NCBI GenBank assembly: GCA_963693055.1
Contig: OY843751.1
Span: 4,928,001-4,992,000 of the forward strand
Direction of reading: 5' to 3'
DNA from: a bacterium
GTDB lineage: Bacteria > Zhuqueibacterota > Zhuqueibacteria > Residuimicrobiales > Krinioviventaceae
Length of the DNA stretch: 64,000 nucleotides
Both the position numbers and the translations under genes were made by a program. Each line of letters starts with the position of its first letter. Position 1 is the stretch's first letter. Positions 10,399 through 17,212 of this stretch are shown piece after piece. The notes beneath the pieces are model-generated. The model was not told where the DNA came from, ran no database searches, and worked only from the letters and a program-made list of their open reading frames with translations.

Positions 10399-10590
10399 TC
10401 CAGTCTCCCCTCTGTTTGCAAATCATGTTTTCGGCACGAATTCTTTTCATTTTTACACGTTCATTAAAGATCTTATCCCCTTGGAGATACATTCAAAAAA
10501 AATTTTAATCTTTTTAAATCAACATATTTCTATCTTAAACCTCCCGGTGACTGTTGAAAAAGTTCATAATCTAGCAAAAATCACCAACTC

Positions 10591-10624
10591 TCCGACCCAT
10601 CCGTCAGCTGACGGATGGGTCGGA
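10591..10624. repeat. Perfect 34-bp palindrome (REP-like)
   Basis: TCCGACCCATCCGTCAG|CTGACGGATGGGTCGGA, GC-rich in an AT-rich intergenic region. Confidence 0.85.
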
Positions 10625-10724
10625 ACTACGACGCAAAGCTCTGATTCGCAAGCATTTGTAAATTAACAACCTGCCCATCATGAAATTTTCCCAATTTTAT
10701 AAAAATGAAATAAAATATTTTTTT

Positions 10725-10750
10725 CTCTGTATCCTTTGTGGCTCTGTGGT
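10725..10750. repeat. CTCTGTG-type short interspersed repeat
   Basis: ctctgtatcctttgtggctctgtggt; last 17 nt match the reverse complement of 40829-40845 at 15/17. Confidence 0.6.
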
Positions 10751-10976
10751 GAAGTTTTTAATCCCTCCTGATAGCAACACAGATATCTGTATTGCATTAA
10801 ATCAATTTTGCAACCTTAATCCTGAAATTATATTACAAACATCCAACGCTATTCGCAGAATCGATTCATAATGAACAGATCGCGACACAGATGCCTGTGT
10901 CGTGGAATATTATCATGGGACATTCGTCCCATCCTTGGCTAATTCGCATCCAGCTTCTATCTTTACAGAAAAACAC

Positions 10977-12505: not shown

Positions 12506-12592
12506 ATGAAATACGATGACCGTATCATTATTTATATCGACATACTAGGTTTTAGAGAAAAAATTAAAGAATCGAAAAAAGAAAACAAATGA
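12506..12592 (+). pseudogene. 28-codon remnant of a nucleotide-cyclase-like (IDILGF) protein
   Basis: RBS AGAGG; MKYDDRIIIYIDILGFREKIKESKKENK*; [YF]IDILGF resembles the first metal-binding strand of class III cyclase-like proteins; stops follow. Confidence 0.5.
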
Positions 12593-12749
12593 ATTTAATG
12601 CACACTAATTAATGTAAAGTCATGGCTTAATTGCTTTTACTGATAACTGAATACTTGTAACTTTCTATATTCGATAACGAAAAATAATTTTTAAAAACCC
12701 CAAAACTCTTTTATATACAATTATATTCACTTTTTAAATAAAAAAATAC

Positions 12750-12804
12750 TTGCAATTTACTCAATATATTGAGTAAATTTACTCAACGTATTGAGTAAAT
12801 TGTA
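12750..12804 (+). promoter_or_regulatory. Tandem 26-bp palindromes overlapping a sigma70-like promoter of the DUF4143 ATPase
   Basis: AATTTACTCAATATATTGAGTAAATT (12754-12779, perfect) and AATTTACTCAACGTATTGAGTAAATT (12776-12801), 22-bp period; TTGCAA at 12750, TAAATT at 12774. Confidence 0.8.
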
Positions 12805-12813
12805 AGGCTAGCT

Positions 12814-13992
12814 ATGTATAAAAGAGCCATATATCCCATTCTACAAAAACGTTTATCTGAAAAACGCCGGTTCATTCAGGTTCTGGCAGGTCCCAGACAA
12901 ACAGGGAAAACCACACTCGCACAACAAATCCTCAAATCCGGGACCATTCAGGGAATATATGCCTCTGCTGACGGCCCCACTCTGCAGCCCCATTCATGGA
13001 TAGAGCAACAATGGGAGTTTGGCAGACTGGAAGCGAAAAAAGGCTCCACTGTCCTAATATTGGATGAAATCCAAAAAATTGACAACTGGTCAGAAACAGT
13101 CAAAAAATTGTGGGATAATGATTCATTAAACAATATTCCTCTTTATTGTATCATTCTAGGTTCATCACCTCTATTAATGCAAAAAGGACTATCTGAAAGC
13201 CTGACCGGCAGATTTGAAGTTATCCCGGTTACGCACTGGAGCTTTCAGGAAATGCAGAACGCCTTTGATATATCATTAGAACAATATATCTATTATGGCG
13301 GATATCCTGGTGCAGCAGAATTAATTGCGGAACCAGACAGGTGGCAAAACTATATATTACACTCTTTAATAGAACCTACAATCTCTAAAGACATCTTACT
13401 CATGACCCGTGTAGACAAACCTGCATTGTTGCGAAGATTATTTGAACTGGGTTGTCAGTATTCAGGTCAAATTTTATCTTTTCAAAAAATGTTGGGTCAA
13501 CTCAAAGATGCGGGCAATACCACCACACTGGCGAATTATTTGGAGCTATTGGGGCAGGCCGGTTTGTTAACAGGCCTCTCTAAATATGCCGGCCAAAAAG
13601 TCAGACAAAGGGCATCAAGCCCCAAGCTACAGGTATTAAACACAGCATTAATGGCAGCACTGGGGAATACACGTTTTGAAGATACATTAAACAATAACCA
13701 ATTATGGGGACGATTTGTAGAGTCAGCAATTGGGTCGCATTTAGCCAACAGCAGTCGTTCAACTCAAATAAAAGTTTTTTACTGGTCAAGCCGTAACAGA
13801 GAAGTGGATTTTGTACTGGAAAAAGGTGACAAGCTTGTTGCCATTGAAGTAAAAAGTCATAATAAACCGGCTTTTCTTCCGGGTATGGATGCATTTTCTA
13901 ACGAATTCCCGGTTACAAAAAAATTACTTGTAGGGGGAAATGGTATTCCTGTTGCGGAATTTTTAACAACACCGGTTACAGATTGGTTCTGA
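12814..13992 (+). CDS. AAA_14 ATPase with DUF4143 (wHTH plus PD-(D/E)xK-like C-terminus)
   Basis: Walker A GPRQTGKTT, Walker B LILDEIQ, GSS, ESLTGR, GGYPG, TTLANYLELL, REVDFVL..AIEVK. Confidence 0.92.
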   Translation: MYKRAIYPILQKRLSEKRRFIQVLAGPRQTGKTTLAQQILKSGTIQGIYASADGPTLQPHSWIEQQWEFGRLEAKKGSTVLILDEIQKIDNWSETVKKLWDNDSLNNIPLYCIILGSSPLLMQKGLSESLTGRFEVIPVTHWSFQEMQNAFDISLEQYIYYGGYPGAAELIAEPDRWQNYILHSLIEPTISKDILLMTRVDKPALLRRLFELGCQYSGQILSFQKMLGQLKDAGNTTTLANYLELLGQAGLLTGLSKYAGQKVRQRASSPKLQVLNTALMAALGNTRFEDTLNNNQLWGRFVESAIGSHLANSSRSTQIKVFYWSSRNREVDFVLEKGDKLVAIEVKSHNKPAFLPGMDAFSNEFPVTKKLLVGGNGIPVAEFLTTPVTDWF

Positions 13993-16133: not shown

Positions 16134-16754
16134 ATGGAGATTGTATTGAACAACCCCGATTCCGCCGCACCGGCAATGGTATCGCAAGCCCGAAAGTCCA
16201 TAAACAGCGACACAGATGCGATACGCTATTGCCAGCAAGGTAACGCGCAGGCGTTTGGCTACCTGGTGGAAAAATATATGCAAAGGGCCTATTATTCCGC
16301 GTTGGGACTCGTAGGATCGCACGACAATGCGGTTGACTTGTCTCAAGACGCATTTGTAAGGGCATTTCGTGCGATCAAAACCTTTGATCCCAGTCGTAGC
16401 TTTTTTACCTGGTACTATCGAATATTACGTAATCTTTGCTTCAATCATTTGCGGGACAAATCTCGTCACGCGCGTTCATTCTCTGAAATGGATGAATACG
16501 AAATCAACTCTATTTCCGACGAGTCCTCAGACACTGAAGCTCTAGCAGAGCAAAACGAAGCTCAAAAAGCGGTCTGGCAGGGCCTTGAACAACTCAAAGA
16601 ACAGGAACGTGAGATTATCATACTCAAAGATATTCAAGATTATTCATATAAAGAAATTGCAAAAGTTCTGGAATGCCCCATCGGCACCGTTATGTCCCGC
16701 CTTTACAATGCCCGCAAAGCATTAAAAGCAAAACTGGAAGGTTTCTACTCATGA
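16134..16754 (+). CDS. ECF sigma-70 factor
   Basis: Region 2 DLSQDAFVRAF..FFTWYYRI; region 4 SYKEIAKVLECPIGTVMSRLYNAR. Confidence 0.95.
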   Translation: MEIVLNNPDSAAPAMVSQARKSINSDTDAIRYCQQGNAQAFGYLVEKYMQRAYYSALGLVGSHDNAVDLSQDAFVRAFRAIKTFDPSRSFFTWYYRILRNLCFNHLRDKSRHARSFSEMDEYEINSISDESSDTEALAEQNEAQKAVWQGLEQLKEQEREIIILKDIQDYSYKEIAKVLECPIGTVMSRLYNARKALKAKLEGFYS

Positions 16755-17212
16755 CAGATTATAATCATATTAAAGAAAAATTTCAAATATTAATGATGGG
16801 TGCTATAGACGGTGAACTGGATGCAAAACAACAACAGGAATTTGAATCACTTCTTGCAGAACACCCGGAATTTTTTCAGGAATATCAAGAATTTCTACAG
16901 CTCAAGGAGAAAACCACAGCAATGAAGCTTAAAACCCCACCTGATGAATTATGGGATACCTATTGGATTGACATATATAACCGTATTGAACGGGGCATTG
17001 GTTGGATATTTTTCTCAATCGGTGCTATGATACTGCTTACCTTTGGTGGTTACAAATTTTTCAAAGCCATTGTTCAAGACGCGCAAATGCCAATCATTCT
17101 GAAATTTGGCACTTTTTTTCTGATCGGCGGACTGGCTGTACTGCTGGTATCTGTTGCACGTGAGCGCATGTTCACTTACAAATCGGACCCGTATAAGGAG
17201 ATTAAACGATGA
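16751..17212 (+). CDS. Membrane anti-sigma factor (ASD without Zn ligands, 2 TM)
   Basis: ATGA overlap with sigma stop; MMGAIDGELD..FESLLAE anti-sigma pattern, two C-terminal TM helices; ORF-track start 16673 is too long. Confidence 0.8.
   Translation: MTDYNHIKEKFQILMMGAIDGELDAKQQQEFESLLAEHPEFFQEYQEFLQLKEKTTAMKLKTPPDELWDTYWIDIYNRIERGIGWIFFSIGAMILLTFGGYKFFKAIVQDAQMPIILKFGTFFLIGGLAVLLVSVARERMFTYKSDPYKEIKR

Follow-up and report, generated by a model that had tools for sequence, protein, structure and literature searches.

A 22-bp-phased repeat array as the candidate self-operator of a PDC-S01 ATPase-nuclease gene

Introduction

The PDC-S01 gene of the analyzed window (the whole 64,000-nt stretch of DNA, whose positions are used throughout) is preceded by an array of alternating half-sites that is likely, with a probability of about 0.7, the binding site of the protein encoded downstream, which would thereby repress its own transcription. 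Homologs carry the box, the box is not found before other genes, its sequence covaries at the level of rows with the predicted recognition helix, and it overlaps the predicted promoter; the self-operator is therefore well supported by comparison. The initial annotation had proposed that the protein binds its own operator, and this part of its proposal gains comparative support from the four lines of evidence. New here is a candidate self-operator for a known but unexplained family, with counts set beside controls, a residue-to-base test on held-out rows, promoter rewriting, and a scar hypothesis that failed.

The accessible portion of PMC12988326 describes PDC-S01 as an ATPase fused to a PD-(D/E)XK domain and as the fourth most common defense in prokaryotes, counts 9,986 copies in archaea and 29,494 in bacteria, and states that most PDCs still await validation. 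Together these make approximately 39,000 copies; the initial annotation had described the family as abundant yet functionally obscure. According to PMC13356809, PDC-S01 ranks first in frequency among the single loci of rumen genomes. One PDC-S01 is among eight candidates in E. coli B in the available part of PMC12881386, which places it outside the four that protect against T4, T5 or T7. In PMC4406477, an AAA_14/DUF4143 gene is up 6.6-fold when Argonaute and a plasmid are both present. Within the searched literature, which leaves most subscription journals outside and is partly represented by excerpts, no upstream site, operator, DNA target or regulation of PDC-S01 was found. The string "PDC-S" is absent from the main text of the PADLOC preprint, whose supplements may bear on PDC-S01. 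The family has no known ligand, target or mechanism; as a first concrete substrate for biochemistry and structural work, it gains a DNA site that is conserved, specific to the gene and paired with a candidate recognition residue.

Repeat array

The array contains the following elements, to which no strand is assigned.

12754-12779: palindromic box 1, perfect, 26 bp, with 13-nt arms and half-sites at 12756-12764 and 12769-12777 (repeat finder)
12776-12801: palindromic box 2, with 11-nt arms, a CGTA spacer and half-sites at 12778-12786 and 12791-12799, at a 22-bp period from box 1
12756-12764, 12769-12777, 12778-12786 and 12791-12799: four 9-bp half-sites in alternating orientation, reading TTTACTCAA, TTGAGTAAA, TTTACTCAA and TTGAGTAAA, respectively
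12769-12786: junction palindrome formed by half-sites 2 and 3, perfect, 18 bp, containing the predicted -10 TAAATT at 12774-12779

Both the sequence and the repeat finder confirm the arrangement described earlier, namely two 26-bp palindromes composed of four alternating half-sites with a 22-bp period, ending 12 bp from the ATG. Aligned as direct repeats, the two boxes are offset by 22 nt and share 91% identity, and the array ends at 12801, 12 bases short of the ATG at 12814. As had also been claimed, the block taken as a whole is near-palindromic, with 26 of 29 positions pairing over 12749-12806. The junction at 12769-12786 is a second symmetry center that the initial annotation overlooked, and it alone is retained in some homologs (L232, L235, L241).

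The box pattern has two matches in the 64-kb window against 0.04 expected by chance, and these two sites are the only matches in the 6.5-Mb genome at up to two mismatches. With a position weight matrix (PWM) derived from 249 homologous boxes, the two array sites score 34.4 and 32.1, while the next best genomic site scores 17.2. A genome scan for the motif had been suggested at the outset, and both scans place it before no other gene. A box that occurs nowhere else in the 6.5-Mb genome does not belong to a host regulon.

Distribution across homologs

The homolog set comprises 195 clade members gathered by genome, metagenome and taxon-centered searches, each full-length, entered once and preceded by at least 100 nt of DNA; broken frames, duplicates and rows with less than 100 nt upstream were excluded (7 of 68 in one batch). 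The upstream DNA of 151 of the 195 homologs, from about 12 phyla including archaea, contains a canonical box or tandem half-site, which bears out the expectation that homologs possess an upstream palindromic box; 111 of the 195 rows are from Bacteroidota, so row counts overstate independence. A lag of 22 ranks alone as the best one for repeats in 163 of the 195 upstream regions, compared with 5 of 169 control windows further upstream, and this signal extends to lineages with other motifs. In the first 135 rows, which include one row without upstream DNA (L007) that is left out of later counts, the forward half-site spacing is exactly 22 in 90 of 100 cases and the gap from the last box to the start codon has a median of 10 nt. 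The same rows show the box in only 9 of 3,617 flanking windows and in none of 17 distant paralogs. Genome scans and homolog flanks thus confine the site to the upstream region of its own gene, as expected of an operator.

The carriers come, among others, from Bacteroidota, Pseudomonadota, Acidobacteriota, Thermodesulfobacteriota, Myxococcota, Gemmatimonadota, Lentisphaerota, Ignavibacteriota, Thermoplasmatota archaea and the window's own phylum, and further include a Verrucomicrobiia genome, Collinsella and, with a variant box, Thermus. The AT-rich box is retained in 14 genes with a GC content above 55%. An exact-pattern search of the window's phylum finds the box in 35 of 167 genomes, with at most three per genome and zero matches for the reversed control. 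Fetching homologs without reference to the box yielded 11 new genes with a 5' end, all 11 of which have it.

Distant PDC-S01 paralogs (L012-L030, approximately 25% identity) have other upstream palindromes or repeats and share no common 22-bp lag. These include TTGCGA..TCGCAA (L012, L016), CCATGAAA..TTTCATGG (L018, L020, L029), and TTGCAA.TTTACA (L013, L014, L027, L030).

Predicted promoter and host-specific rewriting

The following promoter and leader elements are predicted on the forward strand.

12736-12746, forward strand: A-tract upstream of the predicted -35, UP-element-like as judged from its sequence
12750-12755, forward strand: predicted -35 hexamer TTGCAA, adjoining half-site 1
12774-12779, forward strand: predicted -10 TAAATT, inside the junction palindrome
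12804-12807, forward strand: AAGG, Shine-Dalgarno-like by sequence, 6 nt before the ATG

TTGCAA and TAAATT are separated by 18 nt and together match sigma70 at 8 of 12 positions by our own count, and the pair is absent from the output of a promoter scan with a threshold of 9/12. The initial annotation placed the array across this promoter; the local match is weak and below the scan threshold, whereas host-adapted promoter patterns in the arrays of homologs favor the placement. The predicted promoter role draws on this comparison across homologs and not on the local sequence alone.

Among Bacteroidota, assigned by record title or by the center of the search, the pattern TTTG-N19-21-TAnnTTTG occurs in 32 of 111 arrays and in 0 of 64 rows of other phyla; the -7/-33 promoter consensus behind it is taken from the available part of PMC7366714. 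Conversely, a sigma70-type pattern occurs in 18 of 64 non-Bacteroidota homologs and in 1 of 111 from Bacteroidota. Since the two patterns differ by phylum, the array junction is, as far as sequence comparison reveals, rewritten to suit the host sigma factor, even at the expense of an inverted half-site. Through these host-specific patterns written into the array, the site overlaps a predicted promoter, as an operator does. No strong inverted partner is present in 67 of 111 Bacteroidota arrays, and one Bacteroidales lineage has direct repeats only, in 3-6 copies at 22 bp. As that lineage retains direct repeats only, it is the head-to-tail period of 22 bp, and not the palindrome, that stays invariant.

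Protein architecture

The gene and its predicted domains are as follows.

12814-13992, forward strand: intact gene for a PDC-S01/COG1373-type protein of 392 aa, with AAA_14 and DUF4143 domains
12889-13214, forward strand: AAA+ motifs, comprising Walker A (G26-T33), Walker B (D84-E85), G116-S117 and R133
13420-13638, forward strand: predicted winged helix-turn-helix, aa 203-275, with recognition helix 236-248, T237 at 13522-13524 and wing residue R266
13645-13989, forward strand: nuclease domain of PD-(D/E)xK-like type, in which E303, E330-x-D332 and E345-x-K347 are intact

The protein matches PF13173 (AAA_14, N-terminal) and PF13635 (DUF4143, C-terminal) above both Pfam cut-offs, and it matches the PADLOC PDC-S01 model PDLC04791 over its full length (E 1e-174). 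It is thus a full-length member of PDC-S01, to which the present work adds the upstream candidate operator, and the 6.5-Mb genome encodes no other member of the family. Residues G26, R28, G31, K32, D84, E85, G116, S117 and R133 are invariant in an alignment of 98 sequences (A2); we take G116-S117 and R133 to be the sensor and arginine-finger set. In the same number of sequences, the nuclease residues E303 and E345 are invariant, and E330, D332 and K347 are conserved in at least 90%. Profile matches of the nuclease domain to YraN/UPF0102, NERD and SfsA are all weak, and a table row of PMC3424549, the part of that source used here, places DUF4143 among PD-(D/E)XK folds. The C-terminal domain is a predicted PD-(D/E)xK nuclease fold.

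An alignment-based AlphaFold2 model (pLDDT 92, pTM 0.91) divides into an ATPase core, a lid made of helices, a winged unit of three helices (203-275) and an alpha/beta domain at the C terminus; a single-sequence model (pLDDT 33) was discarded. The invariant motifs, the modeled fold and the intact nuclease residues uphold the earlier reading of the protein as ATPase motifs, a wHTH-like segment and a PD-(D/E)xK-like tail. Fold searches with the model effectively cover residues 1-285 and barely cover the nuclease part beyond 304. The archaeal AAA+ ATPases PAB2304 (2qen; Z 16.4, rmsd 3.1, 252 aligned) and SSO1545 (2fna; Z 16.2, rmsd 3.5, 254 aligned) share the AAA+ core, lid and winged helix in the same packing over residues 1-285, but are only 16-17% identical and are matched without the nuclease domain. 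The Foldseek list is headed by ORC, Cdc6 and CED-4, with 2qby and 2v1u among the top matches, and DNA-bound Cdc6/Orc1 (2qby) aligns with Z 13.4 and rmsd 9.3 over 249 residues.

Archaeal Cdc6/Orc1 proteins combine an AAA+ module with a winged helix that binds specific DNA. The present protein differs from them in the orientation of the winged helix (rmsd 9.3 Å), in its fused nuclease, in having only one predicted target, which lies at its own gene, and in the lack of any origin sign. Because the model packs compactly, like PAB2304 and SSO1545 and unlike DNA-bound Orc1, the recognition helix may require a conformational change to reach DNA. The core fold resembles CED-4/NB-ARC, although the domain order departs from that of a STAND NTPase: where a STAND protein has an N-terminal effector and a C-terminal repeat sensor, this one has its ATPase first, its nuclease last and no repeat domain.

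Covariation of box and recognition helix

Covariation was followed on a tree built without the helix columns, on which box changes map to separate lineages, and the tables exclude 6 rows without a repeated site. Among 97 conserved-but-variable columns, the top two are R266 and T237, both in the winged helix. All 16 rows in which residue 237 is neither T nor V have a changed box, whereas such residues occur in none of the 148 canonical-box rows. In held-out rows alone, 9 of 9 rows with such a residue have a changed box, and 0 of 33 canonical rows carry one. One of the changed rows, L235, is so counted by an automatic threshold and looks canonical. T/V237 is retained with 25 of 41 changed boxes, so other residues matter.

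Individual lineages show the same association. In Zwartia, T237S goes with TGCGC while its sisters have TGAGT; L195 and L197 combine T237A with TGCGT, whereas L093 and L196 have TGAGT. T237A/S occurs with TGCG in separate lineages, namely L051, the L195/L197 pair, and the held-out L248 and L262. Three Alphaproteobacteria-level rows pair A236-S237 with TGAAC, and the L236 residue goes with a CTAAT box. Co-resident clade paralogs have different cores in 7 of 9 genomes by our own reading.

A residue-to-box rule fixed beforehand was then tried on 58 held-out rows, giving 45 correct calls, 9 false alarms (8 from V236) and 4 misses. For V236, 8 of 15 held-out rows contradicted the prediction. Held-out T237A/S rows carry TGCG as predicted in 2 of 4 cases, and the other two, L275 and L277, have mainly TGAGA. 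In phylogenetically independent pairs, residue 237 gives 4.4 with the same direction, 0.0 with the opposite direction and 3.6 unchanged (sign test, median p 0.125); the corresponding test for the held-out rule gives p 0.0625. Covariation with wHTH residues, which the initial annotation had proposed as a check, therefore stands at the level of rows (16/16 against 0/148), while independent pairs reach p 0.06-0.25 across tests and V236 fails. Independent box-switch events are too few for significance, and covariation of the box with residue 237 of the predicted recognition helix is thus a strong suggestion rather than proof.

Locus context and decay

The gene is flanked by an aldehyde dehydrogenase gene on one side and a convergent DUF1598 gene on the other. 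Across the homolog set, 119 of the 146 nearest flanking ORFs were scanned and belong almost all to different families; 12 are defense- or TA-like by our own reading, without a background rate, including three paralogs. Apart from these DUF4143/AAA_14 paralogs (3 cases), no neighbor recurs in the 119 ORFs, and no conserved regulator appears among them. PDC-S01 is accordingly a single-gene system, which sustains the initial view of a one-gene module with no adjacent regulator.

In a genome of the same genus (G001), both boxes are kept and the reading frame is lost. There, an orphan box pair (L120:1504-1547) is followed by a short ATG frame, and the ATPase-nuclease gene is deleted. In a set of 30 loci chosen by the box, the gene is intact at 13, broken or internally deleted at 9, and without any profile-detectable remnant at 8; a start codon still lies behind the box in 4 of these 8. 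The idea that scars preferentially keep the operator is not supported, since five partial remnants found without reference to the box lack it (L295, L297, L298, L299, L307). Because remnants chosen by protein are often without a box, the decay is read as ordinary and frequent. Another intact gene is followed, 220 bp downstream, by a further pair of boxes with a few start codons (L141, G036:C255:1402-1445), which makes a tandem decayed duplicate.

The intergenic gap of the window holds one further frame.

12506-12592, forward strand: relic ORF of 28 codons starting MKYDDRIIIYIDILGF, within a segment of about 250 bp that is missing from G001; no Pfam match

The relic ORF is probably a decayed gene start, and its IDILGF motif presumably recalls nucleotide-cyclase-like proteins. 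The absence of its segment from G001 suggests that the gap is a small gain-and-loss hotspot. Elsewhere in the window, the region 10475-10930, between a penicillin-amidase-like gene and the aldehyde dehydrogenase, matches many places in G001 and is multi-copy and REP- or MITE-like, and several palindrome families recur genome-wide in the window's genome. An ECF-sigma-like ORF (16134-17212, forward strand) followed by a probable membrane anti-sigma gene lies 2 kb away, with no link to the box found. In Coxiella burnetii plasmids, a 59% identical homolog is annotated as an ATP-binding protein (3 matches).

Proposed mechanism

Under the self-operator reading, the winged helix would read TTGAGTAAA through the start of the recognition helix (N235-T238, above all T237) and wing residue R266, as the covariation implies. 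Protomers would line up head-to-tail along one face of the DNA at intervals of 22 bp, or about two helical turns. In this array, two opposite rows interleave, a geometry visible in the half-sites themselves, and up to four protomers could occupy the -35/-10 region. Judging from its fold, the Cdc6/STAND-like ATPase would use its nucleotide state as the switch for assembly. Negative feedback would keep a potentially harmful nuclease low and let the gene function on arrival in any host, and self-repression that works in any host would fit a solitary gene that has spread between phyla and often decays.

The most likely purpose would be conditional nuclease action against invading DNA, or that of a selfish accessory gene. 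A true anti-phage role is plausible but tentative, with the odds leaning slightly against it. A more far-reaching scheme is doubtful. It would make PDC-S01 a one-gene DNA-gated nuclease that polymerizes head-to-tail on its own array under a code in which T237 specifies TGAGT and A/S237 specifies TGCGT. The array would then be operator and antidote at once, and its loss or disturbance, for example through phage breakdown of host DNA, would free active nuclease.

Alternative interpretations

An alternative that keeps the protein-array contact, and is itself unlikely, sees in the array chiefly a platform for assembly or sequestration on which the ATPase-nuclease stays inactive, the DNA serving as antidote or sensor, with release or ATP-driven spreading triggering cutting and repression being secondary. 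Arrays reach 5-9 half-sites, and the pure 22-bp direct repeats of one Bacteroidales lineage lie 60-130 nt upstream and exceed what simple occlusion needs. Intact nuclease and ATPase residues, a fold like both STAND switches and origin-binding Orc1, and loss of the intact gene at 17 of 30 box loci also agree with a platform. It is less easily reconciled with promoter elements written into the array, with the box-blind gene remnants that often lack a box, and with the one tested PDC-S01, which lies outside the protective candidates in the available part of PMC12881386.

A transposon-end-like function is much less probable. The protein would then be a Cdc6-like ATPase/REase transposase, resembling the elements of Zhang et al. 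2016 as summarized in the accessible part of PMC8195603, and the scars with box and remnant would be non-autonomous copies. Differing neighbors at almost every locus would suit such an element, as would the first and last codons that remain in several scars (L122, L126, L138). Against it, 88 homologs inspected by eye share no conserved sequence after the stop codon, the flanking windows rarely contain the box (9 of 3,617), no genome among the 167 has more than three exact boxes, and the window's genome has a single gene copy. The G001 site is a deletion scar and not an empty target, and scars of sister genomes share their locus (L137/L138, L144/L145). With no 3' motif, a single copy and a deletion scar, the locus does not have the features of a DNA transposon or IS.

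Slim prospects attach to two readings in which the protein plays no part. In one, the palindromes act as nucleic-acid structure, either as a hairpin in the leader RNA or as a cruciform, and not as duplex DNA read by a protein. The 58-nt block does fold as DNA at -18.6 kcal/mol (z -9.2) and has four Rfam hairpin matches, but these are all far under the gathering score, and the array is mostly upstream of the predicted transcript start. The many Bacteroidota direct-repeat arrays (67 of 111) speak against such a structure, and pairing of spacer positions is at chance level for pairs 1/6 (0.45 vs 0.47) and 2/5 (0.64 vs 0.62), with the central pair at 0.51 vs 0.39. In the other, a host regulator unrelated to this protein, global or local, binds the box, which overlaps the predicted promoter as host operators do. 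This agrees poorly with a box that is unique in its genome, recurs in about 12 bacterial phyla and archaea, is absent as an exact pattern from 132 of the 167 genomes of the phylum, has different cores before paralogs of one genome, and has no conserved regulator beside it.

Iterons occur with a 22-bp period in some plasmids, and an origin with iterons or ORB-like boxes and the protein as initiator would match that period and the Cdc6/Orc1-like fold, but it can practically be set aside: the site has no GC-skew switch, only 7 of 72,556 plasmid records contain a clade-level homolog, as does 1 record of a phage collection, viral contigs searched with this query contain no relative, and the genes sit in chromosomal housekeeping contexts with frequent pseudogenes and a fused nuclease.

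Relation to known systems

Conflict genes that repress themselves are familiar, and the regulatory logic of the self-operator is in that respect unsurprising. AbiEi of AbiE, a toxin-antitoxin system of type IV, represses its own promoter by cooperative binding to inverted repeats (excerpt of PMC7319586), and the available portion of PMC12490963 describes Orc1-2 as a promoter-binding transcription regulator. PDC-S01 resembles AbiEi as a defense-linked protein with self-repression, predicted in the present case. AbiE is a two-gene system without an ATPase, whereas PDC-S01 has reader, ATPase and nuclease in one chain and no partner. Unlike the inverted repeats of AbiE, the inverted repeats of PDC-S01 can be replaced by head-to-tail phasing.

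A single-chain ATPase-reader-nuclease with strict 22-bp phasing, host-sigma rewriting and natural orthogonal protein-operator pairs is a useful object for further work, and the presence of the native promoter array is suggested as a relevant variable in phage assays of PDC-S01. A divergent gammaproteobacterial branch (L236-L239) with GNTDL and GNVEI helices has its own 22-bp-phased boxes, of CTAG and CTATC type, which form a natural orthogonal set.
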